Source of the DNA: a bacterium
GTDB lineage: Bacteria; Patescibacteriota; Microgenomatia; Daviesbacterales; UBA10151
Direction: 5' to 3'
DNA length: 60,576 nucleotides
Assembly (NCBI GenBank): GCA_021786105.1
Contig: JAJYNW010000016.1
Span: 1-60,576, forward strand
The notes beneath the pieces were generated by a model. That model was not told where the DNA came from. It was given only the letters and a program-made list of their open reading frames with translations, and ran no database searches. A program made the position numbers and the translations under genes. Shown here in pieces: positions 1,948 through 53,920 of the stretch. The number at the start of each line of letters is the position of its first letter. Position 1 is the stretch's first letter.

Positions 1948-3117
1948 ATGAGTTTAAAAGTTGGAATTATAGGAATGCCCAATGTGGGGAAAAGTACCCT
2001 TTTTAATGCCCTTTTGAAAAAGAGGGTGGCTTTAAGTGCTAATTACCCGTTTGCTACCATTGAGCCGAATGTGGGGGTGGTGGCGGTGCCTGATTCTAGG
2101 TTAAATGAGCTGGCGGAATTGGTAGCTGTGGAGGAGGGAATGATCCCGCAGGAGATCCTGAAACAAGTTCAGGATGACACCCCTGGGGTGGAGGCACAAA
2201 AATATTTTCCCCCGATTGTGCCGGCAGTGGTAGAGTTTGTAGATATTGCCGGTTTAGTTAAAGGTGCGGCAACTGGGGCAGGATTAGGGAATAAATTTTT
2301 ATCTCATATCCGGGAAGTGGATGCAATTGTGCATGTTTTACGGGATTTTGAAGATGCCAATATTATCAGGGAAGGCTCAGAAAACCCAAAATCAGATAAA
2401 GAGATCATAGAAACAGAGTTAATCCTGGCAGATATTGAAACAATAGATAAATTAATTTCTTTTGCAGAAAAAGAATTAAAGTTCTCTAAGGATCCTTTAG
2501 ACCCTAAAAAATTAGAGATTTTAAAAAAGATTAAAGAAGATTTAGATAAGGGAACTTGTATAGGGGATAAATTAATAAAAACCGCTGAAGGTATGGATCA
2601 GAGAATGCGGGGCTGGATTACTACGTTACCTCTTTTATCAATTAAACCGGTTTTATATGTTTACAATGTAGGAGAGGATCAATATAGTCAAATATCCTCC
2701 GATCGTGGTACAAATGAAAATGAAATGGCTATTTCAGCCAAAATGGAAGAGGAGTTAGCTGATTTGTCAGATGAGGAGAGGTTGGAATACTTAAAAGAGT
2801 TAGGGGTTGAGGAAACTGGTTTGGAAAGGCTGATTAAAAAGGCTTATGTTTTACTCGGATTAATTTCCTTTTTGACAGCCGGCAAAAAAGAAGTCCGGGC
2901 CTGGACTATAAAAAAAGGAACTTTGGCTCCCCAGGCTGCTGGGGTAATCCATACTGATTTTGAAAAAGGTTTTATTAGAGCTCAAGTTGTTAGCTTTGAA
3001 AAATTAATTGAAGCAGGATCTTTAGCAGTTGCTAAATCAAAAGGCTGGGTGAGGACTGAAGGAAAAGATTATATTATGCAGGATGGAGACGTGGTGGAGT
3101 TCTTGATCAGTTCTTAG
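1948..3117 (+). CDS. ychF: Ribosome-binding ATPase YchF
   Basis: GMPNVGKST, ANYPFATIEPN, DIAGLVKGA, C-terminal TGS domain (GKDYIMQDGDVVEF). Confidence 0.97.
   Translation: MSLKVGIIGMPNVGKSTLFNALLKKRVALSANYPFATIEPNVGVVAVPDSRLNELAELVAVEEGMIPQEILKQVQDDTPGVEAQKYFPPIVPAVVEFVDIAGLVKGAATGAGLGNKFLSHIREVDAIVHVLRDFEDANIIREGSENPKSDKEIIETELILADIETIDKLISFAEKELKFSKDPLDPKKLEILKKIKEDLDKGTCIGDKLIKTAEGMDQRMRGWITTLPLLSIKPVLYVYNVGEDQYSQISSDRGTNENEMAISAKMEEELADLSDEERLEYLKELGVEETGLERLIKKAYVLLGLISFLTAGKKEVRAWTIKKGTLAPQAAGVIHTDFEKGFIRAQVVSFEKLIEAGSLAVAKSKGWVRTEGKDYIMQDGDVVEFLISS
2152..2190. repeat. Two abutting palindromic repeat modules inserted in frame in ychF
   Basis: gagatcctgaaacaagttcaggatgac (2152-2178) then cacccctggggtg (2178-2190); encodes EILKQVQDDTPGV. 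Confidence 0.75.
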
Positions 3118-13075: not shown

Positions 13076-13123
13076 AAGAAAATCTTGCGAGCTAATCGCT
13101 CTTAGGATTATTATACCTTTTAT

Positions 13124-13200
13124 GTCATTGCGAGGTCGAGACTTCGACCCGTGGCAATCTTCCATGGGCGTGGAAGATTCCTCACTACGTTCGGAATGAC
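13124..13200. repeat. GTCAT...ATGAC dimeric palindromic repeat (CGTC-REP/RPE-like), intergenic
   Basis: gtcattgcgaggtcgagacttcgacccgtggcaatct ... agattcctcactacgttcggaatgac. Confidence 0.85.
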
Positions 13201-13207
13201 AAAGTAG

Positions 13208-17682: not shown

Positions 17683-17784
17683 TATAATCGCTTGCGATTA
17701 CATCGCGACGCTTCTTGTAACGCGTTGCGTTATAATCGCTTGCGATTACATCGCGACGCTTCTTGTAACGCGTTGCGTTATAAT
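17683..17784. repeat. Perfect 2 x 48-bp tandem duplication upstream of manC
   Basis: tataatcgcttgcgattacatcgcgacgcttcttgtaacgcgttgcgt at 17683 and 17731, plus a third tataat at 17779. Confidence 0.92.
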
Positions 17785-20110: not shown

Positions 20111-20779
20111 TTGGCGATGGATATTTACTGGTATGGACAAGCATGTTTTAAAATAAAAGGTAAAACTGCTACTGTCGTGATAGATCCACACGATCCTCAA
20201 TTTACCGGTCTCAAACTTCCCAAAGAAAAAGAGTTACAAGCAGATGTGGCATTGGTGACACATGATCATCAGGATCATAATTTTATTTCAGCGGTTACTA
20301 TGCCGGATGGCAGTAAACCAATGGTTTTTGATAAACCCGGAGAATACGAAGTAGCGGGGGCGGTTATTACCGGTATACGTTCTTTCCATGATAATTCTGA
20401 AGGGTCCGAAAGAGGGCTAAATACTATTTTCCATTTATTTATGGATAATTTGGATATTGTGCATTTGGGGGATTTGGGGCAAGGCAAACTAACCGAGGAG
20501 CAAGTTGCCGAAATTGGCCCAACTGATATTTTGCTTATTCCGGTGGGGGGCACATACACCATAAACTCTGAAATAGCTTCAAATATTGTTTCCCAGTTGG
20601 AACCAAAAATTATTATCCCAATGCATTACAAAATAGAAGGATTAAAGTTTGAACTTGATAGTGTTGACGGGTTTTTGAAGGAAATGGGAGCAGAAGGAGC
20701 CATCCTGCAACCCAAGCTTTCGATAACCAAAGAAAAACTGCCCGAAGAGCCACAGGTGGTGGTGTTAAGTAAGAGCTAG
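20111..20779 (+). CDS. MBL-fold metallo-hydrolase
   Basis: WYGQACF, THDHQDHN, HLGDLG, IPMHY. Confidence 0.9.
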   Translation: MAMDIYWYGQACFKIKGKTATVVIDPHDPQFTGLKLPKEKELQADVALVTHDHQDHNFISAVTMPDGSKPMVFDKPGEYEVAGAVITGIRSFHDNSEGSERGLNTIFHLFMDNLDIVHLGDLGQGKLTEEQVAEIGPTDILLIPVGGTYTINSEIASNIVSQLEPKIIIPMHYKIEGLKFELDSVDGFLKEMGAEGAILQPKLSITKEKLPEEPQVVVLSKS

Positions 20780-20920
20780 CTCGTCGGTGCGCAAAAAACC
20801 GCTCGCGCGTCCAAGTCGCTCGCTTGGAGTTTGTTTCGCGCCGGGTGGTGACTGGATCAGGAATTCTGCGGTGCGCTCAACTGCACTGCATTTTTTGACT
20901 GCACTCGACTTCGCTGCTCT
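20772..20920. repeat. Structured dispersed element, copy 1 (candidate ncRNA or MITE)
   Basis: Blocks 50/55 and 27/28 identical to 35869-36012; ends are self-complementary. Confidence 0.85.
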
Positions 20921-20932
20921 TTTAATAAAGAT

Positions 20933-23588: not shown

Positions 23589-23702
23589 GTCATTCCTGCG
23601 AAAGCAGGAATCCAATTATCCGAACATAGTGAGGATAATAGTCCACGTCTATTAACCATTTAAGCTTGTGTTTAATTGGATCCCGACATTCGTCGGGATG
23701 AC
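23589..23702. repeat. GTCAT...ATGAC dimeric palindromic repeat, intergenic within the ABC operon
   Basis: gtcattcctgcgaaagcaggaatcca ... tggatcccgacattcgtcgggatgac. Confidence 0.88.
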
Positions 23703-23710
23703 ACTTTGTG

Positions 23711-24533: not shown

Positions 24534-25115
24534 TTAGCTTATCATATTTAACTTTTGAATTTTGGCTTTAAATTCCTCCAAGGTGCCGTTGTTTTCGATC
24601 TTAATGTCGGCTTTTTTGGAAATTTGGGGAATGTCTTTTTCTGCTTTGGATTTTTCTTCTTTTAAAAATTGCTCAAAGGTCAGCCCAACTTCGCCGACTT
24701 TTTCACTTCTGGTCTTTAACCTTTGGTATCTTAATTTTTGGCCGGCGGTAATATAAATTAGAGTACTGTTTTTAAAGCTTCGAACTAATCTGGCTTCAGC
24801 TTCACGTCTGACTCCGTCAAAAATCACAATGTCAGCAGTATCGCCTTCAACGGAAAACTTGGCCGCTTTAGCCAAAGCTGTCTGGCCAAAAGTTTCACTC
24901 ATCATTAAGGCCAACTTTTGTAAATTGGCTCTGGTGATGGGAATATCCCACATAATTAAAGTTTCGGCCAAAATATCGGAAAACCTTACCTGCCTAATTT
25001 TTAATACCTCCCCTTTGTCATTGCGAGGACTGTAGGACGAAGCAATCTGTTTTATAAAATTGACAAAGGTTTGCTTGCCGGATCCTTTTTCGCCCACTAA
25101 ACCAAAAATTTGCAT
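24534..25115 (-). CDS. P-loop NMP kinase / dephospho-CoA kinase-like protein
   Basis: GLVGEKGSGK, FDGVRR, ADIKIENNGTLEEF; contains a repeat-derived insertion. Confidence 0.75.
   Translation of the reverse strand: MQIFGLVGEKGSGKQTFVNFIKQIASSYSPRNDKGEVLKIRQVRFSDILAETLIMWDIPITRANLQKLALMMSETFGQTALAKAAKFSVEGDTADIVIFDGVRREAEARLVRSFKNSTLIYITAGQKLRYQRLKTRSEKVGEVGLTFEQFLKEEKSKAEKDIPQISKKADIKIENNGTLEEFKAKIQKLNMIS
25017..25048. repeat. Half GTCAT-family repeat in frame in the kinase gene
   Basis: gtcattgcgaggactgtaggacgaagcaatct; its reverse complement is 31/32 identical to 34196-34227. Confidence 0.88.
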
Positions 25116-25352
25116 GCATTGTTTTTAACAGATTTTTGGCCGGGGAGTCAATCAGAAGATATTATGAAGAGTTTTTAACCTTTTGATAATGAACATGGCA
25201 ATAAACAAAGCCCAGACGGTAATGGAGTTAGACCGGATATAAGCCGGCAGCAAAAATATCCTTAATAAATAACGCATGAGAAGTAATTTTAAAAGTTACT
25301 TTTAAGAAGCAAGTTAATTTTTGGTAAGAAGTTGGGAAGCAAGAAACTCACT

Positions 25353-26618
25353 TCATTGCTCAGCTAAGGCCACTGTTGGTTGGAGGGATTCGGCATGCTT
25401 TTGCAGGCGGTATTTGTGCAAATAATAAGCTCCGATACCATAAAGGAAAATTAAAACGGTAAATACCCGGATAGCCATTTGCGGGCCAAAAACCGAGGAG
25501 ATCGAGCCAATTAGAATATTACCGATAGGTGATAGTCCAATAAACATTAAAGAGTAAATACTGGACACCCGGCCCCGGAAATCTTCATGGACCAGTTTTT
25601 GAATGGTGGTGTAAACAGATGAAAACTGGATAGTTAGCCCCAGTCCGGCAAAGAAAAGCAAGATGGATGCCAAATAAATGTTGGCGGCAAAAGAGAAGGC
25701 AAAGGTGGCCGCCATAAACAGGGCACTGCCGATCATAATAAATTTCTTGGCTTTGGCTTTTTTATACCGGGAGGAAATTATTAAAGAACCCACCAGTGCT
25801 CCCACTCCGGTAGAGGAAAGCAAAAATCCCAAAGTTTGAGCGTTGCCCGAGAAAACTTTGGCTACCAGAACCGGCATCATGGTGGCTTGGGAAAAACAAA
25901 GAATGGCCCCCATGCCGGCGGTCAAAAGCAATAAACTGATGGAAGGATGAGAGGAGGCATAAGCAATGCCTTCTTTTATGGCCTTGAGAGGTTTGTCCTT
26001 TTTGCGGTTGATTAAAGGATTGACTTCAATTAAACATAAGCTGATTAAAATAGCTAGGAAGCTTAAGGCGTTAATTAAAAAGATATTACCCATTCCCGCC
26101 AAGGCAATTAAAAATCCAGCTGCAGCCGGGCCGACCACCCGGCCGGTATTGAATATGGCTGAATTCAAGCCAATGGCTGAATGTAAATCGTCTTTCTGGA
26201 TAATATCTATCAAAAATGCCTGCGAAGCCGGGCCGTCCAAAGAATCGGTGATGCCGGAGAGTAAAGTAATCAACATTAATATAGGCAGAGTAATAGTGTG
26301 GGTGATGACTAATATGCCCAGGGTGGCGGCCAATATTAGGGAGCTGGTTTGGGTGCAAATTAAGATTTTCTTTCTGTTTAATTTGTCCACTAAGAATCCG
26401 CCAAAAAGGGAGAAAAACAAAACAGGTGAAGCTGACAGGGCAGAAATTGCCCCCAACCAAAAGGCAGAATGGGTCAGTTGATAGACCAGCCAGCCATAGG
26501 CTACCCCATGCAGCCAGGAACCGGTATAAGATATAAGTTGCCCCGTGAAATATAACCTGTAGTTTCTATATTTGAACGCGGGAAATGTTTTTTGTAATTT
26601 CTCGAGCAGTTTTAGCAT
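25353..26618 (-). CDS. MFS transporter (transmembrane secretion effector/H+ antiporter-like)
   Basis: About 12 TMs, YRNYRLYFTGQLIS, GFLVDKLNRKK; start could also be 26642. Confidence 0.9.
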   Translation of the reverse strand: MLKLLEKLQKTFPAFKYRNYRLYFTGQLISYTGSWLHGVAYGWLVYQLTHSAFWLGAISALSASPVLFFSLFGGFLVDKLNRKKILICTQTSSLILAATLGILVITHTITLPILMLITLLSGITDSLDGPASQAFLIDIIQKDDLHSAIGLNSAIFNTGRVVGPAAAGFLIALAGMGNIFLINALSFLAILISLCLIEVNPLINRKKDKPLKAIKEGIAYASSHPSISLLLLTAGMGAILCFSQATMMPVLVAKVFSGNAQTLGFLLSSTGVGALVGSLIISSRYKKAKAKKFIMIGSALFMAATFAFSFAANIYLASILLFFAGLGLTIQFSSVYTTIQKLVHEDFRGRVSSIYSLMFIGLSPIGNILIGSISSVFGPQMAIRVFTVLIFLYGIGAYYLHKYRLQKHAESLQPTVALAEQ

Positions 26619-26763
26619 CACTAAAGGGGCCGATGTTAGCACAATATGAAGTTGATGTAAAGGCTTTTCTTTCCTTCTTCTTACACTTTTCTAATATTCC
26701 TTTTATCCGGGGTGCCTATGATGGATTTAAGCGGTGGAATTTTGAAATTCCATCGTATTATTT

Positions 26764-27774
26764 ATGAAGATTGCAGTTTTTCGGGCACTGAAATTGGGAG
26801 ATTTACTATGTTGCGTTCCGGCTTTAAGGAGTTTGAGAAGGGCTTATCCTAAGGCGGAAATTACACTGATTGGTTTGCCATGGGCAAAAGATTTTGCCTT
26901 AAGGTTTAACCACTTGATTGATAAATTTGTGGAATTTCCAGGCTATCCGGGTTTGAGAGAAAGTGCCGGTAATTTACGGGGGATTGTAAAGTTTGTGACC
27001 CAAATGCAGGAAGAAAATTTCGATTTGGTGATACAAATGCACGGTAACGGGAAGGTGACTAATTCCTTAATCAGAAGTTTAAGACCGCAGTTAGAAGCCG
27101 GCTATTGGAAAGGAGAGGTCTGTCCGAATCCCCAAACTTTTATGCGGTATGTGGATAACCAGCATGAAATTAAAAGACACTTAATGCTGATGAAATTTTT
27201 GGGGATAGAGCCTCAGGGTGCTGATCTGGAATTTCCCATTAAACCTAGTGAAAAACGGCAGTTTCAGGAAAACATTGATCAATGGAAGCTGGAAACCGGA
27301 AATTTTGTAGTTATTCATTCCGGTGCTTATGCGAAGCGAAGACGATGGCCGGCCCAAAGGTTTGCCCAAGTGGCTGATTATTTAGCCGGCTTAGGCTACC
27401 AAATTGTTTTAACCGGAGTTGAAGAAGAAAAAGAGATTATTTCAGCGGTTTTGAAGGAGATGCTTCATCCGGCAGTTAACCTGGCGGGGAAGACTGATTT
27501 GGGGCAATTGGGAATGATTATTAAAAATGCCCGGGTTTTGGTTTCAAACGATACCGGTGTTTCTCACCTGGCCGCAGCTGTTAAAACCCCCAGCGTGATT
27601 ATTTCCTATTTAAAAAACCCTAACCTTTGGGCTCCGCTTAACCAGGATCTTCACAGAGTTCTGCAGGCTAAGGAAGCAGAAGATATAAGCCAGGTCTTTA
27701 TGGAGCTCGATTTGCTGCTCAATATCCACTGGAGAAGAGGAATAGCTGGTTTCCCAAGAATACTCAGTGTATGA
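26764..27774 (+). CDS. Glycosyltransferase family 9 (heptosyltransferase-like)
   Basis: KLGDLL, RRWPAQRFAQVA, VSNDTGVSHLAAA. Confidence 0.92.
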   Translation: MKIAVFRALKLGDLLCCVPALRSLRRAYPKAEITLIGLPWAKDFALRFNHLIDKFVEFPGYPGLRESAGNLRGIVKFVTQMQEENFDLVIQMHGNGKVTNSLIRSLRPQLEAGYWKGEVCPNPQTFMRYVDNQHEIKRHLMLMKFLGIEPQGADLEFPIKPSEKRQFQENIDQWKLETGNFVVIHSGAYAKRRRWPAQRFAQVADYLAGLGYQIVLTGVEEEKEIISAVLKEMLHPAVNLAGKTDLGQLGMIIKNARVLVSNDTGVSHLAAAVKTPSVIISYLKNPNLWAPLNQDLHRVLQAKEAEDISQVFMELDLLLNIHWRRGIAGFPRILSV

Positions 27775-28709
27775 GGAGAATATTAACCTGGCATGTCCAC
27801 GGGAATTATTTATATTATTTAACCCGAGTTAAATCCTGCGATTTTTATATCCCGTTTAAAAAAAGCGGTGGATTGGGGTATGAGGCTATCGGATCAGGAT
27901 TCCCTTGGGGAAAAAATGTTCACCAGGTGCCGGCAGAAGAGATTAAGAGGCTTGGGCTGGATTTAATCCTTTTCCAGTCCAGCTATCCGGAGAATAAAAT
28001 TTACTTACAGGATCAGTTTGAGATTTTATCAAAGGATCAATTAACTCTGCCAAAAGTTTATCTGGAACATGAGCCTCCCAGGGATTTGCCAACTGATACC
28101 AAACATATAACTGCCAGCTCAGATACCTTCTTGGTGCATGTGACTCATTTTAATAATTTGATGTGGGATAGCGGACAAACCGCTACCAGGGTGATTGAGC
28201 ATGGTGTGGTGGCGCCTGAAATACCTTACATTGGCGACCTGCCAAAAGGGGCGGTGGTAATTAATAATTTGGACAAAAGAGGTAGAAGATTGGGCCGGGA
28301 TGTTTTTGAAAGGGTGAAGAAGGAAGTGCCTTTGGATTTAATCGGCATTGATTCGGAAAACTTAGGCGGTTTAGGCGAAATACCGCATCAAGAATTACTT
28401 AAAGCTTTATCTCGTTACCGGTTTTTGTTTAATCCGGCTCGCTATACCTCGCTGGGGTTGGCAATTTGTGAGGCAATGATGATTGGTCTGCCGGTGGTTG
28501 GTTTGGCTACGACGGAAATGGTTACCGTAGTTCAAAGTGGAATCTCAGGCTTTTTGGATACGAATATCGAGGCTTTAATTCCCCAGATGAAACTATTGAT
28601 TAATGATCAAAATTTGGCCCGGCAAATGGGAAAAGAAAGCCGGCAAATTGCCCAGAAAAGATTCGACATTCAGAGGTTTGTCAAAGACTGGGAGGAGGTA
28701 CTGGGATGA
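27771..28709 (+). CDS. GT-B glycosyltransferase (GT4-like)
   Basis: LGLAICEAMMIGLPVV, SGISGF. Confidence 0.85.
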   Translation: MRRILTWHVHGNYLYYLTRVKSCDFYIPFKKSGGLGYEAIGSGFPWGKNVHQVPAEEIKRLGLDLILFQSSYPENKIYLQDQFEILSKDQLTLPKVYLEHEPPRDLPTDTKHITASSDTFLVHVTHFNNLMWDSGQTATRVIEHGVVAPEIPYIGDLPKGAVVINNLDKRGRRLGRDVFERVKKEVPLDLIGIDSENLGGLGEIPHQELLKALSRYRFLFNPARYTSLGLAICEAMMIGLPVVGLATTEMVTVVQSGISGFLDTNIEALIPQMKLLINDQNLARQMGKESRQIAQKRFDIQRFVKDWEEVLG

Positions 28710-30619
28710 AGCGCAAAATTGCTTTTATCAGTCATGAATCGCCGCTTGCCACTTTGGGCGGGGTGGATGCCGGCGGCCAGGTGATTTATATCGGCCAGAT
28801 TGCCAAGAAGTTGAGCCGGTTGGGTTATGAGGTAGATATTTTCACCCGCTGGGATGATGCCAGGCTGCCGCAAGTGGTGGAATGGGATAACGGCGTCAGG
28901 GTGATTCAAGTCAAGGCCGGGCCGATTACCTTTATAAATAAGGAAAAATTGTTTCCCCACATGAAAGAGTTTACTGATAACATGATTGATTTTATGAAAA
29001 CGGAAAAAGATCCTTACCGGCTGATCCATGCTAATTTTTGGCTGGCGGTAATCCCGGCCATGGAAATTAAACAAAGATTTAATATTCCATTTGTGGTGAC
29101 TTTCCATGCTTTGGGTAAAATCCGACGGATCTTTCAGGGGAAAGATGATAAATTCCCGGATAACCGTTTTGGAATTGAAGAGAAAGCTATGAGAGAGGCA
29201 GCCGCCATTATTGCCGAATGTCCCCAAGATCGGGAAGATATGATTAATTACTATAATGCTAACCCGGACAAAATTACTATCATCCCGGCTGGTTTTGACC
29301 CCAATGAATTTTATCCGATTGATAAACTGTTGTGCCGGATGGTTTTAGATTTAAACCCCAAAGAGCCAATCATCCTACAGCTAGGTAGGGTTATCAAAAG
29401 AAAGGGGATTGATAATGTGATTGCTGTCCTGCCAATTTTGCGGAGAAAGTTTAGAGTTAAAGCCAAGTTGCTGATTGTAGGGGGTGACAGTGATGTGCCT
29501 AACGCCAGACTTACTCCGGAAATCAGAAGATTGAGGCGAATTGCCAGACAGGAAAAGGTAGAAGATTGTGTTCGATTTGTTGGCCGGAGAGGCAGAGAAA
29601 CGCTGAAATATTTTTATAATGCCGCTGATGTGTTTACTACCACTCCCTGGTATGAACCCTTTGGCATTACGCCTTTGGAAGCGATGGCTTGTGGTACGCC
29701 GGTAGTGGGGTCAAATGTGGGCGGTATCAAATATACGGTTTTAGACGGAAAAACCGGTTATTTAGTTCCTCCAAATGACGCGGAAAGCTTGGCGCAAAAG
29801 TTGGCCGATATATTCAAAAACCGCAAAATTGCCAACTTTTTTAAAGAAAACGGCCTGAAAAGAGTCAATAATGCCTTTACCTGGGAAAAAATTGCCAGCT
29901 CTATTTCTCAAGTTTACGAAAAAGTGCTTTTTGGTGACATTCAAATCCCGGAAAAGGAAAAACAGCTTCATATTATTGAAAGCGGTTTTAGGGCTTTATC
30001 CCAAACTGTGGAACAATCGCAGTTTGCCTTGCGTATTCCGATGCTGGACGCTGCCCAAGCCATTGCCCGCAGTTTCCAGGAGGGTGGTAAAGTTTTGGTC
30101 TGCGGTAACGGCGGATCAGCGGCTGATTCTCAGCATCTGGCAGCGGAGCTAGTCGGCCGCTTCCAAATTTCCTTAAGGCAGGGACTGCCGGTGATTTCCC
30201 TGACTAGTGATACTTCGTTTTTGACTGCCTGGGGGAACGACTTTTCCTTTGATGAGATATTCTCAAGACAAGTGAATGCTTTGGGGCAGGCAAATGATAT
30301 TTTAATCGGCATCTCAACTAGCGGAAATTCCGAAAACGTTAACCTGGCTTTCATTGAAGCTCATAAGAAGGGAATGGTTTGTATAGGGTTGTTAGGGAAA
30401 AAGGGAGGCGAAGCAGCTGAGTTGTGTGATGTGGCCTTAATAGTTCCTTCTGATGATACCCAAAGAATTCAGGAAATCCATACTAATGTGATCCACACGA
30501 TTTGCGAGTTAATAGAAAAACAGTTATTTACCTCAGAAGACCGGCCGGAAACTGTTTTGCCAAAATCTCTGCCGGTTAAACCGAAATTACCTTACGTGTT
30601 GAAGGAGCAAATGAAATGA
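28706..30619 (+). CDS. GT4 (MshA-like) glycosyltransferase fused to GmhA-type SIS phosphoheptose isomerase
   Basis: DAGGQ, YEPFGITPLEAMACG; C-terminal CGNGGSAADSQH, ISTSGNS, QRIQEIH. Confidence 0.9.
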   Translation: MKRKIAFISHESPLATLGGVDAGGQVIYIGQIAKKLSRLGYEVDIFTRWDDARLPQVVEWDNGVRVIQVKAGPITFINKEKLFPHMKEFTDNMIDFMKTEKDPYRLIHANFWLAVIPAMEIKQRFNIPFVVTFHALGKIRRIFQGKDDKFPDNRFGIEEKAMREAAAIIAECPQDREDMINYYNANPDKITIIPAGFDPNEFYPIDKLLCRMVLDLNPKEPIILQLGRVIKRKGIDNVIAVLPILRRKFRVKAKLLIVGGDSDVPNARLTPEIRRLRRIARQEKVEDCVRFVGRRGRETLKYFYNAADVFTTTPWYEPFGITPLEAMACGTPVVGSNVGGIKYTVLDGKTGYLVPPNDAESLAQKLADIFKNRKIANFFKENGLKRVNNAFTWEKIASSISQVYEKVLFGDIQIPEKEKQLHIIESGFRALSQTVEQSQFALRIPMLDAAQAIARSFQEGGKVLVCGNGGSAADSQHLAAELVGRFQISLRQGLPVISLTSDTSFLTAWGNDFSFDEIFSRQVNALGQANDILIGISTSGNSENVNLAFIEAHKKGMVCIGLLGKKGGEAAELCDVALIVPSDDTQRIQEIHTNVIHTICELIEKQLFTSEDRPETVLPKSLPVKPKLPYVLKEQMK

Positions 30620-31338
30620 ATGCTTTCAAAGGCAAAATTGCTTTAGTAACCGGTGGGGGTCAAGGTTTAGGTCAAGAAATTTGCCGAAGTTTGGCTAAGG
30701 AGGGGGCTTTAGTGATTGTGGCTGATGTTAATAAACAGAAAGCGGAAAAAGCTGCCAAATGGATAAAATACCAAAGGGGAAAGGCTCAGGCGATAGAATT
30801 GGATGTAAGCGATGAGCTTTCTGTAAAAAAAGTTTTTGATGAGTTGGATAAACAGTTTGGGGTTTTAGATATTTTAATTAATAATGCCGGGATAGATTTT
30901 ACTAAATCTTTGGACGAAATTTTGACCGATGAGTGGCAGAAGGTGCTAAAAGTTAATCTGATTGGGGCGTTTTTAATGACTAAACATGCCTTCTCCGTTA
31001 TGGGTAAAAAAGAGCCTGGGCAAGTGATTAATATCTGTTCTACAGCTTCCAAAAGAGCCTGGGCTAATGCTTCAGCTTACCATGCTAGCAAATGGGGTTT
31101 GTTGGGTTTTTCCCACGCCGCACATGTAGAAGGCCGGGAGAAAAATATCAAAGTTACAGCTTTGGTTTCCGGCGGGATGAAAACACCCTTTATTTTAGAA
31201 AGATTTCCGGAGGCAGAGCCTAATTTGCAGGATCCAAAAAATGTGGCAGAGGTAATTAAGTTTGTTTTATCTTTACCTAAAGAAACAGCTATTCCTGAGG
31301 TGATGGTGATTCCAATGAGGGAAACAAGCTGGCCTTAA
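30616..31338 (+). CDS. Short-chain dehydrogenase/reductase
   Basis: TGGGQGLG, NNAG, YHASK. Confidence 0.93.
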   Translation: MNAFKGKIALVTGGGQGLGQEICRSLAKEGALVIVADVNKQKAEKAAKWIKYQRGKAQAIELDVSDELSVKKVFDELDKQFGVLDILINNAGIDFTKSLDEILTDEWQKVLKVNLIGAFLMTKHAFSVMGKKEPGQVINICSTASKRAWANASAYHASKWGLLGFSHAAHVEGREKNIKVTALVSGGMKTPFILERFPEAEPNLQDPKNVAEVIKFVLSLPKETAIPEVMVIPMRETSWP

Positions 31339-31349
31339 ATACTTACTTG

Positions 31350-31432
31350 TGCCGAGGGAGGGAGTCGAACCCTCATGATCTTGCGATCAATAGATTTTGA
31401 GTCTATCGTGTCTACCATTCCACCACCTCGGC
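31350..31432 (-). tRNA. tRNA-Leu(CAA)
   Basis: Acceptor stem GCCGAGG/CCTCGGC, anticodon arm ATAGA-CTCAAAA-TCTAT, long variable arm, GGTTCGACT; CCA not encoded. Confidence 0.96.
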
Positions 31433-31509
31433 AATTTAACTACTTGAGGCATTATACCAATTTTAGCTTTACGAAGAAAGAATAAAGAGATGCTTTATTT
31501 TATGTCTGT

Positions 31510-31534
31510 ACAAATGTCCTCCGGCCGTGGTACA
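31510..31534. repeat. 25-bp direct repeat, left copy (inverted arms acaaatgt/acatttgt span 31510-31539)
   Basis: acaaatgtcctccggccgtggtaca, identical to 32041-32065. Confidence 0.93.
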
Positions 31535-31544
31535 TTTGTGATAA

Positions 31545-32039
31545 ATGACTAGGTTTCCTAGCAAGCGAAAGGCTTTAACTGATTTAGTTTTACTCGCTTT
31601 GGAGAAATCAGTTGATGGTTATGTGAGTTTTGAAGATTTTATCTATAATCCTTTGCTGGAAAGACCGGTTAAGAAACCAGCTCTTTCCCAAGTAATTAAA
31701 CGATTAAGAGAAAAAGGTTTTATTGAATTTGTAAAGGATGAAGAATTGATTTTACGATTAACAGATTCCGGTAAAGATAGAGCATTGTGGGCAAAAATGA
31801 GAAGTGGAGATGAGAAATGGGATGGTAAATGGAGGTTGGTGGTTTGGGATATTCCAGAGAAAAGAAGACAGGCTCGCGATTTGTTAAGGTTTAAATTGAA
31901 ACAGCTAGGATTTAAACAATGGCAGCAAAGTATTTGGGCTTCAAAGATAAACTGCACAAAGCTATTAAGAGATTTTATTAAGCAAGTCGGGATAGAGGAT
32001 TGGGTGATGGTAATTGAATCTGATAATATTGGGAATTGA
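31545..32039 (+). CDS. wHTH plus Cas2-like (PaaX central domain) protein
   Basis: ALSQVIKRLREKGFI...LRLTDSGK then WDGKWRLVVWDIPEKRR...LKQLGF...QQSIW. Confidence 0.88.
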   Translation: MTRFPSKRKALTDLVLLALEKSVDGYVSFEDFIYNPLLERPVKKPALSQVIKRLREKGFIEFVKDEELILRLTDSGKDRALWAKMRSGDEKWDGKWRLVVWDIPEKRRQARDLLRFKLKQLGFKQWQQSIWASKINCTKLLRDFIKQVGIEDWVMVIESDNIGN

Positions 32040-32040
32040 G

Positions 32041-32065
32041 ACAAATGTCCTCCGGCCGTGGTACA
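32041..32065. repeat. 25-bp direct repeat, right copy
   Basis: Separated from the stop codon by 1 nt; identical to 31510-31534. Confidence 0.93.
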
Positions 32066-32157
32066 AATGAAATATAAAGGATTTAGATCGGGTAAGACTG
32101 GACAAGAGATTGTGATTTAGGTAAAGTACCAAACAGAATTAAGGAAAGGGGTAAACT

Positions 32158-34746
32158 ATGAAAAACAAAGTTAGATTACCGGTACATGTTAAACCCCAGC
32201 GCTACAAAATTATGCTCCGGCCGGACCTTGAGCAGTTTACCTTTTACGGCGAAGAAACAATCGAATTGTTGCTGGATAAACCCGCTAAGCAAATCACTCT
32301 CCACTCAGCTGAGCTGGAAATAGATTCAGCAGAATTCATCCATCAAGATAAACAGGTCTGGGCAGGTAGGATCTCCTATGATGTTAAAGCTGAAACCGCC
32401 ACCTTTACTTTTCCCAAAACTCTTCTCAAAGGCAGAGGGCAGCTAAAACTAATGTTTAGGGGAATTTTAAATGATAAAATGCGGGGTTTTTACCGTTCAC
32501 GCTATGAAGTGGGCGGAGTTTCAAAACATATCGCGACCACCCAATTTGAATCGACTGATGCCAGGCGGGCTTTTCCTTCTTTTGATGAGCCTTCACAAAA
32601 AGCTATTTTTGATGTGACTTTAATGGTGCCGGCTAATTTAACCGCTATTTCAAACACTATGGAATCTAATGTGTTGGAGCATGAAAGCGGTTACAAAACT
32701 GTTGAATTTGCCCCTACCCCAAAAATGTCTACCTATTTGCTGGCCTTTATTGTGGGAGATTTTGAATATATTGAAAAAGAGACTGAAGATAAAGTCAGGG
32801 TCAGAGTTTTTACCACTCCTGGTAAAAAAGCCCAAGCCAAGTTTGCGTTAGATGTGGCAGCCAAATGCTTGGAATTTTACAATGATTATTTTGGAATTAA
32901 ATACCCGCTGCCCGTACTTGACATGATTGCTATCCCGGATTTTGCAGCCGGAGCCATGGAGAATTGGGGAGCGGTAACTTACCGGGAATCCACTTTGTTG
33001 ATTGACGAAGCCAGTTCCTCTTCAGCCAATAAACAATGGGTGGCCATGGTGATTGCCCACGAACTGGCCCACCAGTGGTTTGGTGATTTGGTTACTATGG
33101 AGTGGTGGACTCATTTGTGGTTAAACGAAGGCTTTGCTTCGTTCATTGAATATTTAGCTGTAGATCATATCTTTCCGGAGTGGGATATCTGGACTCAATT
33201 TGTAGCTACCGAGTTGTCTGATGCTTTTGAGCTGGATTCGTTAAAAAATACGCACCCGATTGAGGTGGAAGTAAAAAATCCGGCTGAAATTTCCGAGATT
33301 TTTGACCGGGTGTCATATTCCAAGGGAGCTTCGGTTTTAAGAATGTTGTGGAAGTATTTAGGGGAGAAGGATTTCCAAAAAGGTTTGCAGTATTATTTGA
33401 AAAAACATGCCTACGGTAATGCCCAAACTGAAGATTTATGGCAAGATTTGGAAGAAAAATCCGGTAAACCCGTCAAAAAGGTAATGAAAAACTGGACCTT
33501 GCGGGCGGGACACCCGGCGGTAAGGGTACAGGTAACAGGCAACAGGCTACTGTTAAAACAGAGTAGATTCTTTTCTAGTCCAATCTCTAAGAATCAAACT
33601 AAGGATAATACAATTTGGAATATTCCGGTGAGAATAGGAAAGGAGCAGTTTTTGCTGGATAAAAAATCTATGTCCATTCCCAACCAGGGAGAAAAGTTAA
33701 ATAGCGGGGAAGTATCTTTGGTCCGGGTGGATTACCCCCGAGATTATTTGTATGGATTGGAAGATTCAATAAAAAGCGGTAAATTATCTGCTCCGGACAG
33801 GTTGGGACTAATTAGGGATAGCTTTGATTTGGCTCAATCAGGTAATTCCCCGACCACTTTAGCTTTGGAGCTGGCTTTAAATTATATAAACGAGGAAGAC
33901 TACACAGTTTGGTCAACACTCACCGGGCACCTTAGTCAGTTGGACAGCTTATTGGCGTATGAGGATTTCTACGAAGATTTTAGAAGCTTTGGCAGAAAAA
34001 TTTACAGCGGAATTGCCGAAAAATTAGGTTGGGAAAAGAAAAAAGGGGAAAAGCACACCGACGGATTGCTTCGGGGCATAGTGTTATATAAATTAGGCTC
34101 TTTTGGAGAGTTGGAAACAATCAAAAAAGCCCAGGAATTATTTTCCTCCTCCCGTCATTCTGAGCGATTAGCGAAGAATCTTCCACGATCGGAGAAGATT
34201 GCTTCGTCCTACAGTCCTCGCAACGACAAGGGTATTGATCCGGATCTTCGCAGCCTGGTTTATAACCTGGTGGCTCAAAATGGCAGCACCAAAGAATTTA
34301 ATACTTTAGTTAAGATGTACAAAGAGGCAGATAACCAGCAGGAAAAAGACCGGATTGGCCGCAGTTTAGGTTTATTCCCGTCTAAAACTATTTTGCAAAA
34401 GGCTTTGGATTTTGCCATTTCCAAACATGTCAGATACCAAAATAGTTTGCAGATAATTGCTTCGGTCTGGAGTAATCCTCAGGGGCGGTATTTGGCCTGG
34501 GAATTCGCTAAAAAGAACTGGAAACTACTCAAAGAAAGGTATGCCGGCGGACATTATTTTACCCGGGTTTTCGCCCCGGCAGGCGAGTTTACCAAAAAAG
34601 AAGATGCCAAAGATATTGAAAGGTTTGTGAAGATTAACCCGGTGCCTGAGGCCAAAAGAACCATTGCTCAAGCCTTGGAGCAAATTTATTCCAATGCGGA
34701 GTGGTTAAAAAGGGATAAGGATAAGATTAAAAATTTTTTAGGGTAA
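32158..34746 (+). CDS. pepN: M1 family aminopeptidase with ERAP1-like C-terminal domain
   Basis: GAMENWG, HELAHQW...E (HEXXH-18-E), YSKG. Confidence 0.96.
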   Translation: MKNKVRLPVHVKPQRYKIMLRPDLEQFTFYGEETIELLLDKPAKQITLHSAELEIDSAEFIHQDKQVWAGRISYDVKAETATFTFPKTLLKGRGQLKLMFRGILNDKMRGFYRSRYEVGGVSKHIATTQFESTDARRAFPSFDEPSQKAIFDVTLMVPANLTAISNTMESNVLEHESGYKTVEFAPTPKMSTYLLAFIVGDFEYIEKETEDKVRVRVFTTPGKKAQAKFALDVAAKCLEFYNDYFGIKYPLPVLDMIAIPDFAAGAMENWGAVTYRESTLLIDEASSSSANKQWVAMVIAHELAHQWFGDLVTMEWWTHLWLNEGFASFIEYLAVDHIFPEWDIWTQFVATELSDAFELDSLKNTHPIEVEVKNPAEISEIFDRVSYSKGASVLRMLWKYLGEKDFQKGLQYYLKKHAYGNAQTEDLWQDLEEKSGKPVKKVMKNWTLRAGHPAVRVQVTGNRLLLKQSRFFSSPISKNQTKDNTIWNIPVRIGKEQFLLDKKSMSIPNQGEKLNSGEVSLVRVDYPRDYLYGLEDSIKSGKLSAPDRLGLIRDSFDLAQSGNSPTTLALELALNYINEEDYTVWSTLTGHLSQLDSLLAYEDFYEDFRSFGRKIYSGIAEKLGWEKKKGEKHTDGLLRGIVLYKLGSFGELETIKKAQELFSSSRHSERLAKNLPRSEKIASSYSPRNDKGIDPDLRSLVYNLVAQNGSTKEFNTLVKMYKEADNQQEKDRIGRSLGLFPSKTILQKALDFAISKHVRYQNSLQIIASVWSNPQGRYLAWEFAKKNWKLLKERYAGGHYFTRVFAPAGEFTKKEDAKDIERFVKINPVPEAKRTIAQALEQIYSNAEWLKRDKDKIKNFLG
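34154..34227. repeat. Full GTCAT-family dimeric repeat in frame in pepN
   Basis: gtcattctgagcgattagcgaagaatct...agattgcttcgtcctacagtcctcgcaacgac; encodes RHSERLAKNLPRSEKIASSYSPRND. Confidence 0.9.
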
Positions 34747-35869: not shown

Positions 35870-36012
35870 GCGGCTTGTCACAGTACAAAAAACCGCTCGC
35901 GCGACCAGGTCGCTCGCTTGAAGTTCGTTTCGCGCCGAGTAAAAGGTGGATCATGGATAAAGTGGTGCGCTCAACTGCACTACATTTTTTGGTTACTTGT
36001 GACTACGCCGCT
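35869..36012. repeat. Structured dispersed element, copy 2 (candidate ncRNA or MITE)
   Basis: See 20772-20920; ends agcggc..gtcaca pair with tgtgac..gccgct. Confidence 0.85.
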
Positions 36013-36035
36013 TTTTAGTGGTATATTTTACTAAT

Positions 36036-53082: not shown

Positions 53083-53835
53083 ATGGTCCCAAAAATTATT
53101 TACCAGGATGACTATCTTTTGGTTTTGGATAAACCTCCCGGGTTGGTAGTAGATACTGCTGAAACTGTTAAACAGGAAACCTTAGAGGATATTTTAAAAA
53201 GAGATTTTAATATTCAAATAGTTCGCGGCGGGATTGTTCACAGACTGGATAAAGATACCTCAGGAATTATACTGGTGGCAAAAACTGAAAAAGCCTTGGA
53301 AAATTTACAGGCACAATTTAAAGAAAGAATCACCAAAAAAGAATATTTGGCTTTGGTTCATGGTTTAGTGACCGAATCAGGGGTGGTGGAGGGAAGTATC
53401 GGAAGGAATCCGGGAAATAGAGAAAAGTTTATTGTCTTGGAGGAAGGTAAGGAAGCAGTAACAGAATATGAACCTGTGGAGCGGTTGCAGCTGACGGGTG
53501 AGAGGTTACAGGAAATTTTTCCTGATTTTAATAAAATCCAGATGAGGAAACTGGAAAAACAGCGTTACGGGGAATTTACCTTGCTGCGGTGTAAGCCCAA
53601 AACTGGACGGACCCACCAAATTAGGGTACATTTAAAATATATAAATCACCCAATTGTGGCCGATGAAAAATATGCCGGCAGAAAAACATACAGGTTAGAC
53701 AAAAGATGGTGCCCAAGGATGTTTTTGCATGCCCAAAAAATTGGTTTTGAACATCCGGCAACAGGGGAATGGATGGAGTTGGAAAGCAGTTTGCCGGAAG
53801 ATTTGAAGAAAGTGCTAAATGTATTGTCATCCTGA
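53083..53835 (+). CDS. RluA-family pseudouridine synthase without S4 domain
   Basis: VHRLDKDTSG, TGRTHQIRVH, IVADEKY, MFLHA. Confidence 0.95.
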   Translation: MVPKIIYQDDYLLVLDKPPGLVVDTAETVKQETLEDILKRDFNIQIVRGGIVHRLDKDTSGIILVAKTEKALENLQAQFKERITKKEYLALVHGLVTESGVVEGSIGRNPGNREKFIVLEEGKEAVTEYEPVERLQLTGERLQEIFPDFNKIQMRKLEKQRYGEFTLLRCKPKTGRTHQIRVHLKYINHPIVADEKYAGRKTYRLDKRWCPRMFLHAQKIGFEHPATGEWMELESSLPEDLKKVLNVLSS

Positions 53836-53909
53836 GCGAAGCGAAGGATCTTAAGACTAAAAAGGAATCTAGAGATTCTTCGGGTCGAGGCTTCGACCCT
53901 CAGAATGAC
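53826..53909. repeat. GTCAT-family dimeric repeat overlapping the rluA-family stop codon
   Basis: gtcatcctgagcgaagcgaaggatct...agattcttcgggtcgaggcttcgaccctcagaatgac. Confidence 0.88.
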
Positions 53910-53920
53910 AGTGAGGGGAT

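Follow-up and report, generated by a model that had tools for sequence, protein, structure and literature searches.

On one contig (JAJYNW010000016.1, assembly GCA_021786105.1) of an ultra-small groundwater bacterium, which the names given to its orthologues assign to Candidatus Daviesbacteria (Microgenomates, candidate phyla radiation (CPR)), two unrelated enzymes, a PepN-like aminopeptidase and a P-loop kinase-like protein, contain the same 12-residue peptide, IASSYSPRNDKG. The whole 60,576 nt stretch is referred to here as the window. The peptides were found to be encoded by insertions of a repetitive extragenic palindromic (REP) element of the CGTC-tagged superfamily, located in loops that are occupied again and again by REP units in related genomes, and the two copies share a variant that is private to this organism. 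The explanation that best accounts for these observations, and which we consider very likely, is that REP copies reside in tolerant, recurrently occupied loops and that the private variant came to be shared through gene conversion or re-insertion. The features concerned are listed below in window coordinates.

32158-34746, + strand: M1-family aminopeptidase (PepN-like) of 862 amino acids, host of the REP dimer; Pfam Peptidase_M1_N, Peptidase_M1 and ERAP1_C, E-values 1e-50 to 1e-92.
34153-34232, + strand: CGTC/TGTC-tagged REP dimer in PepN, two units with the tags facing outward; 80 nt, in frame, translated as RHSERLAKNLPRSEKIASSYSPRNDKG.
~34153-34186 (left) and ~34195-34232 (right), + strand: the two units of the PepN dimer.
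24534-25115, - strand: P-loop nucleoside/nucleotide-kinase-like protein of 193 amino acids, host of a single REP unit; weak Pfam hits to AAA_17, AAA_18 and DNMK.
25012-25048, - strand: single REP unit in the kinase-like gene; tag-first on the + strand it reads GTCATTGCGAGGACTGTAGGACGAAGCAATC, translated as IASSYSPRNDKG.

The 32-mer ATTGCTTCGTCCTACAGTCCTCGCAACGACAA was present twice in the window, at 34198-34229 on the + strand and at 25015-25046 on the - strand, with one mismatch between the copies; no such pair was expected in 100 shuffles, which bears out the near-identity over 32 nt that an earlier sequence-only reading of the window had reported. The match extended to 37 nt (25012-25048 and 34196-34232), of which 35 were identical (95%), and it contained a 28 nt core that was perfectly identical. 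Both shared stretches encode the 12-residue peptide, as that reading had also noted when it pointed to the common frame. The common frame itself stands, but two of the six frames of the dimer and four of the six frames of the single unit are free of stop codons, so that a shared frame is expected in a quarter to half of cases and is weak, not significant, evidence.

The element in PepN had been described as a full dimeric palindrome of 74 nt. A 74 nt core bounded by GTCATTCTGAG (34154-34164, + strand) and GTCGTTGCGAG (34217-34227, - strand) was indeed located within the in-frame two-unit element; alignment of its two arms showed that they are different units, and the element is therefore an imperfect heterodimer. 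The translation around the insert is ...SSSRHSERLAKNLPRSEKIASSYSPRNDKGIDPDL, with the longer context ...AQELFSSSRHSERLAKNLPRSEKIASSYSPRNDKGIDPDL..., and a typical orthologue without an insert, as the majority of orthologues are, reads ...AQELFKKGKIDPDL.... Compared with the nearest empty orthologue (L128) the insert amounts to a net gain of 81 nt (27 codons); where the window PepN has 30 residues, this sequence (P0037/L128), its closest neighbour in the tree, reads GSN. A short loop with no REP was found in all 80 of the distant PepN orthologues, from other phyla and archaea, among the matches listed, and the alignment of orthologues thus agreed with an insertion having taken place, as the sequence-only reading had anticipated. 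The GAMEN and HELAHQW...E motifs were intact in the translation of 32158-34746 (+ strand). The AlphaFold2 model of PepN had a mean predicted local distance difference test score (pLDDT) of 86.1, and residues 668-691, which lie between helices 652-672 and 695-707, had a pLDDT below 50; the dimer is located in this inter-helix loop of the C-terminal ERAP1-like domain. The same loop of a PepN homologue from Saccharibacteria (L141) carries an unrelated insert of ~20 residues which looks like a local duplication (…IAPDLR…IDPDLR…), and on this sequence the loop appears to tolerate length change outside Daviesbacteria too.

The copy in the kinase-like gene was not the right half of a palindrome for which it had been taken; it was a complete single REP unit. 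The translation around it is ...FIKQIASSYSPRNDKGEVLKIRQ and the open reading frame (ORF) contains GEKGSGKQTFVNFIKQIASSYSPRNDKGEVLKIRQ. In comparison to the nearest empty alleles (L003 and L004) the unit represents a net addition of 30 nt, and the majority of kinase orthologues, which have no insert, are typified by ...FLKEIAPNLNIRQ.... The ORF was full length with its catalytic motifs intact. The AlphaFold2 model had a mean pLDDT of 87.5, and its closest structure was the Sulfolobus adenylate-kinase-related protein 3lw7 (template modelling scores 0.76/0.85). The insert is in loop 27-39 (pLDDT 67-73), a coil between helix 14-26, which is the P-loop helix, and strand 40-44. Both inserts are therefore low-confidence loops in the models, in keeping with the proposed insertion into tolerant protein loops.

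The CGTC-tagged REP superfamily was defined by Di Nocera, De Gregorio & Rocco (2013, BMC Genomics 14:522; PMC3733652) as having a terminal CGTC (or TGTC/CCTC) tag, an 8-9-bp stem starting with AT, a 4-5-nt loop and a 3-nt CCA-like tail; inverted dimers predominate and occasional intragenic copies are translated (PMC3733652). The elements in the window have a tag at one end, stems starting with AT, a short tail and an organisation in inverted dimers, and they too are dispersed paired units, some of which are intragenic and read through. Further features in common are a mostly intergenic location, intragenic copies read as 10-30 extra residues, copies that supply a stop codon, and no transposase seen. 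The units in PepN and in the kinase-like gene start with ATT, pair only over the 5 bp ATTCT/AGAAT or ATTGC/GCAAT, and have interiors of 11-15 nt and the tail CTT. Judged by these sequence features, each of the two peptides results from translation of a copy of a CGTC/TGTC-tagged REP hairpin element.

Occupation of the two loops was compared across Daviesbacteria orthologues. For PepN, a loop with an insert of at least 12 residues was counted as filled, and the tree of the 116 full-length orthologues was built without those columns. The loop was filled in 24 of the 116, which required 21 state changes on the tree, and many of the filled genes were well-supported sisters of empty ones. The variants were highly diverse (CHPERSEGS..., VIPAKAGIH...GSRIKSGMT, MSLRDHEVAKQSR...IASSKTPRND, RHSGERSDSRI...SGQARMT). 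The kinase loop was filled in 32 of 121 orthologues with 22 changes needed, where shuffles required 28.4 on average and at least 24, and its variants included other REP types (ILRLPSVAQDYS, IVLRQAQDKS) and a tandem pair (IATEPSAPRNDRGGEIASSRTPRND). Different REP variants were thus present at one or the other of these loops in 21-26% of the Daviesbacteria orthologues, scattered over the gene trees. Occupancy of the kinase and PepN loops was independent on shared contigs; for example, in L003 the kinase loop is empty and the PepN loop filled. A second hot spot in PepN, occupied even more often, is located after residue 492 (P0001; window ~33630-33640), where 34 of 121 orthologues were filled (e.g. 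TSLRATAKQSTKKIATSPTAPRND) and ~20 of the 34 inserts were clear REP peptides; this site is empty in the window gene. Minor PepN insert sites were present near residues 210 and 460, and in the AlphaFold2 model these two sites and the one after residue 492 are all turns between strands. By these counts the loops are recurrent REP hot spots in Daviesbacteria. Two explanations remain for the hot spots, a tolerance filter acting on a high flux of insertions and targeting at the nucleotide level; the insert boundaries varied within approximately four codons, a variation that the tolerance filter alone can explain. REPs at about the same site have been described previously in recB of two Xanthomonas species, and intragenic GTAG- and CGTC-tagged REPs are known from several phyla (PMC3733652). 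The present case differs in its host, as the CPR/Patescibacteria are outside the phyla covered in that study, in the high share of coding copies, and in the re-occupation of the same loops across many related lineages.

That the two window copies are nearly identical is most probably due to recent copying or gene conversion involving two sites at each of which a REP was already present, and not to two fresh insertions. Relatives read SSKT, SSRT, SSSSTIAQG and the like at both sites, units of the SSKT type turn up repeatedly in the family at each of the three hot spots, and the kinase of L005 has a loop that is 15 nt longer. The PepN genes of L003 and L007 both carry TCGAAGACTCC (SSKT) with left units that are quite different between the two. 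The interior TCCTACAGTCC (SSYS) was found only in this organism's two copies among the listed orthologues, and the exact variant had no match in 185,579 GTDB representative genomes, among which the window species is apparently not included.

It is distinctly unlikely that the two copies stem from recent, independent transpositions of a currently active master copy into loops that had until then been empty. The identical 28 nt core within a 35/37 match and the private SSYS variant speak for such transposition, as does the fact that REPs of the CGTC class are clearly gained and lost between close relatives, but orthologues only 72-84% identical already have REP units at the exact sites, with the same ends and frame. 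In addition, the PepN dimer has a left unit and a spacer that were ~81% identical to those of P0004/L007, a divergence close to that of the host gene, so that the PepN insert looks old. A search for the unit at a likeness of at least 95% in contigs of four runs (X1-X4), in which the organism is present at ~3-23x depth, returned only these two loci and no third copy. The recent spread into these genes proposed by the sequence-only reading is accordingly not upheld as stated, since both loops already hold related REP variants in orthologues; the recent event would be the sharing of the private TCCTACAGTCC variant between resident copies and not the first arrival of the element.

According to the conversion or re-insertion explanation, both sites would have been occupied by REP units earlier. 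In one of the two copies the interior would then have been replaced, through short-patch gene conversion or re-insertion, by that of the other copy or of a third genomic copy, with the conserved element ends serving as homology. The elements would be read through because the frames used have no stop codon, adding 10 residues to the kinase-like protein and 27 to PepN, and these residues would make up disordered loops at the surface, clear of the catalytic motifs. The two genes would stay intact because the inserts are stop-free and lie in such loops.

It is very improbable that both enzymes convergently recruited the peptide as a functional module under selection, such as a motif for binding or targeting. 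The alignment of 25012-25060 with 34196-34240 showed three differences between the copies, including one in the adjacent Gly codon (AAT/AAC, AAA/AAG and GGG/GGT), all of which are synonymous third-position changes, and the PRND-type frame is the commonest among orthologous inserts, both of which speak for such a module; yet the inserts of relatives at the same loops also use other frames and peptides (...GMT, VIPAKAGI, LRLPSVAQDYS), the segments are predicted to be disordered, the same element is also intergenic, and a near-identical strain has an R to H substitution inside the peptide. Comparison of the window with L007 (601-3240) further showed that a stem pair of the left unit was changed on both sides, from ATTCT/AGAAT to ATCCT/AGGAT (T-A to C-G), such that pairing was kept at the cost of two amino acid changes (S to P and N to D). 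This suggests that the constraint or template, if there is one, lies at the level of the hairpin and not of the peptide.

That repeat-induced misassembly made the junctions, or that the insertions inactivated genes which are now decaying, is scarcely credible: assemblers can be misled by short repeats and metagenome-assembled genomes are error-prone, but the junctions are the same in several independent assemblies and samples, the ORFs are full length with conserved catalytic motifs, and the frames are kept open through the inserts in dozens of lineages. A contig of a second NCBI assembly (GCA_027424735.1) and a Logan contig matched the window at 99.98-99.99% identity across 11-20 kb and carried both genes at the window lengths, including the 862 amino acid PepN; the kinase protein on them differed by one substitution, the R to H change mentioned above. 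In runs of three studies (mine tailings, mine drainage and sediment), contigs crossed the two junctions gap-free and with 0-2 differences; an assembly artefact was rejected on these grounds.

The sequence-only reading had regarded the element as a selfish repeat. The unit GATTGCTTCG-N-CCTCGCAATGACAA was found in >120 genomes from numerous phyla (Patescibacteria, Omnitrophota, Chloroflexota, Alpha-, Beta- and Gammaproteobacteria, Bacteroidota, Cyanobacteria and others), where its usual partner was (C/T)GTCATTGCGAG...GAAGCAATC. With this distribution the element is to be seen as an ancient pan-bacterial family and not as a selfish repeat of one lineage. A ~95 amino acid GIY-YIG gene was present within ~350 nt of the unit in five of 120 loci of other phyla, and PF01541 was confirmed for two of these. 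The five loci with ~95 amino acid GIY-YIG genes (YVYIMTN…LYTGVTNDL…REKQIK) directly beside GATTGCTTCG…CCTCGCAATGACAA units are L015, L058, L065, L072 and L079, and the genomes with such genes are of Bacillota, Nostoc, Chryseobacterium and Dehalococcoidales.

Ssn proteins are GIY-YIG nucleases that bind and cut single-stranded DNA (ssDNA) at the NTS (CGTCATTCCCGCG..GCGGGAATC), and Ssn-related motifs (SRMs) flank the ssn genes, which encode small single-domain GIY-YIG (cd10448) proteins, and are Ssn targets (Chenal et al. 2025, Nat Commun 16:2388; PMC11893778). The NTS, which as Neisseria dRS3/NTS falls in the CGTC-tagged class, shares its tag-plus-hairpin architecture with the window REP units, and the presence of the window REP type beside GIY-YIG genes in other phyla is a second likeness. 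What was demonstrated for Ssn is cutting of ssDNA and modulation of transformation, not movement of repeats (PMC11893778). An active hairpin-specific DNA transaction in Daviesbacteria and other CPR might drive the re-occupation of loops beyond what a tolerance filter would give, with an Ssn-type ssDNA nuclease perhaps nicking tag- or stem-like sequences and short-patch templated repair following; we regard this as rather unlikely and put it forward tentatively. Three observations hint at it, namely the private loop variant common to two unlinked genes, the modular units, with L003 and L007 pairing the same right unit with different left units, and the resemblance of the native ATTGCTCC or ATTGATCC to the inner stem ATTGCTTC. 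If it were true, REP interiors would be inserted, overwritten and exchanged at defined sites in housekeeping genes, and surface loops of essential enzymes would be continually rewritten. The insertions, their family, their place in loops, their recurrence and the private variant common to both copies are demonstrated; how conversion would work, and whether a hairpin-specific enzyme such as an Ssn-type GIY-YIG takes part in the movement of REPs, is inferred.

The empty alleles (L128, L006, L003 and L004) read ATTGCTCC, ATTGATCC or CTTGCTCC at or beside the insertion point. The resemblance of the native ATTGCTCC/ATTGATCC codons to the stem was noticed post hoc and in the few empty-site DNAs compared, and it may be microhomology, target mimicry or coincidence. 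A target motif common to all hot spots was considered and rejected for the same reasons.

Several results weigh against the explanation preferred here. The predicted RNA fold of the PepN dimer, at -26.2 kcal/mol, was no better than those of shuffles (z = -1.3), and the two-unit element falls short of the palindrome first described in this respect also. The evidence for gene conversion is indirect, and the event counts on the trees may be inflated by allelic recombination and weak tree support. The PepN and kinase units, with their 5-bp outer stem and longer, variable interiors, miss the strict published stem and loop sizes of CGTC-tagged REPs. The SRM pattern (HGTCWY N0-2 YYVSBRH N0-5 WNVSBRG N0-2 RNCYNB; PMC11893778) had no match on either strand of the window, where 0.14 matches were expected by shuffling; the stems of the window units are more AT-rich than the pattern allows. 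No ssn/GIY-YIG gene and no REP-associated tyrosine transposase (RAYT) gene of this family was seen in the window or in ~80 kb of Daviesbacteria loci. Finally, none of the metatranscriptome contigs of the same study mapped to PepN, and the peptides are known from DNA only. A reading of the PepN element as a structured RNA was also tried and is rejected on the same fold z-score; an Rfam scan of the window gave a single tRNA above the gathering score and no RNA family covering the element.

Six loci of the superfamily were found in the 60.6 kb window, approximately one per 10 kb, made up of four dimers and two singletons. Three are in frame, two are intergenic and one supplies a stop codon, such that 3-4 of the six are coding copies. 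Besides those in PepN and the kinase-like gene they are:

2152-2178, + strand: single unit (GATCCTGAAACAAGTTCAGGATGACA) in YchF, in frame (…EILKQVQDDT…), abutting a CACCCC-GGGGTG palindrome.
13123-13205: intergenic REP dimer with rpmE (L31) and a release-factor gene on either side.
23589-23710: intergenic canonical CGTC-1 dimer between ABC-transporter genes, CGTC ATTCCTGC GAAA GCAGGAAT CCA ... TGG ATCCCGAC ATTC GTCGGGAT GACA.
53825-53912: REP dimer at the 3' end of an RluA-type pseudouridine synthase gene (53083-53835), left unit TGTCATCCTGAGCG.

The tag is CGTC at 34153 and 23589 and TGTC at 13123, at 53825, in the kinase unit (ttTGTCATT, 25014-25021) and in the right PepN unit. The CGTC-1 definition is matched exactly by 23589-23616 and its partner, which have an 8-bp stem, a 4-nt loop and a CCA tail; the second unit of this dimer reads TGTC-ATCCCGAC-GAAT-GTCGGGAT-CCA on the reverse strand. 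In the pseudouridine synthase gene (…VLNVLSS*), the two final codons and the TGA stop come from the left unit of the dimer at 53825-53912, and the next gene starts 9 nt past the element. The insert in YchF (1948-3117, + strand) is an in-frame composite (2152-2190) consisting of a GATCC...CAGGATGACA unit followed by the CACCCC-T-GGGGTG palindrome, which belongs to another repeat family; together they are translated as …EILKQVQDDTPGVEAQ….

Rickettsia palindromic elements (RPEs) inserted in frame in protein genes were reportedly described by Ogata et al. in 2000 and 2002, work to which PMC3733652 and PMC10969869 refer. The elements in the window are like RPEs in that palindromic repeats lie in the reading frame of housekeeping proteins that are unrelated to each other, in a genome that is reduced, at positions exposed on the surface and without destroying the genes; the in-frame inserts are likewise absent from orthologues and compatible with the fold. 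RPE-1 is 100-150 nt in length and restricted to Rickettsia, and its peptide is said to have been shown to be expressed. The elements described here are, in contrast, of a 30-80-nt REP type that occurs across phyla, with peptides known at the DNA level. The link to RPEs runs through the placement of R. conorii RPE-6 (CGTC-1) and RPE-4 (CGTC-4), together with Neisseria dRS3, in the CGTC-tagged class (PMC3733652). Since RPE-4 and RPE-6 belong to the same superfamily, the Rickettsia precedent named by the sequence-only reading is a closer one than that reading realised.

The window elements also resemble the REPIN/RAYT system and MITEs (miniature inverted-repeat transposable elements) in being short, non-autonomous, dispersed and organised as hairpin-forming inverted doublets. 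RAYT-linked REPs carry a GTAG tag, whereas the window units are CGTC-tagged. MITEs have terminal inverted repeats and target-site duplications made by a cognate transposase. The window dimers have inverted ends (TGTCATT...AATGACA), and by inspection no direct duplication flanked any of the four dimers, nor was such a transposase present in the window.

The two inserts are a new example of a phenomenon known from the RPEs of Rickettsia and from the intragenic REPs of other bacteria. Among the papers of the library searched, none was found that links REPs or MITEs with CPR/Patescibacteria, and the present case extends the in-frame, REP/RPE-type 'protein-coding palindromes' to the CPR, in a window where half of the REP copies are in coding sequence and the loci are dense. 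The resolution is unusual, as the same PepN and kinase loops have been filled, emptied or overwritten approximately twenty times within one family, and this dense, well-resolved turnover of hot spots, combined with the probable exchange of sequence between coding copies, adds modestly to the interest of the case. It may be of use for studying how selfish hairpin DNA makes new protein segments, for mapping sites in enzymes that tolerate insertions, and for finding out whether REPs spread by means of Ssn-type nucleases or through gene conversion. For annotation, it explains length variation and the 'junk' low-complexity peptides (PRND, LAMT, VIPAKAGI, RHSER...) in CPR proteomes.

Three further repeats were observed in the window. 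A perfect 48-nt tandem duplication (TATAATCGCTTGCGATTACATCGCGACGCTTCTTGTAACGCGTTGCGT x2) is located at 17683-17778; the alignment to GCA_027424735.1 breaks exactly there, which suggests that its copy number differs between assemblies of the same population. A 39-nt repeat (…CAAATGTCCTCCGGCCGTGGTACAAATG…) is present in three copies (2681-2719, 31503-31541 and 32034-32072), two of which bracket a 164 amino acid PaaX_M-like ORF immediately upstream of pepN. A 144-nt element is present in two copies that are 76% identical (20779-20922 and 35873-36016), one of them immediately downstream of an efp-like ORF that adjoins pepN.

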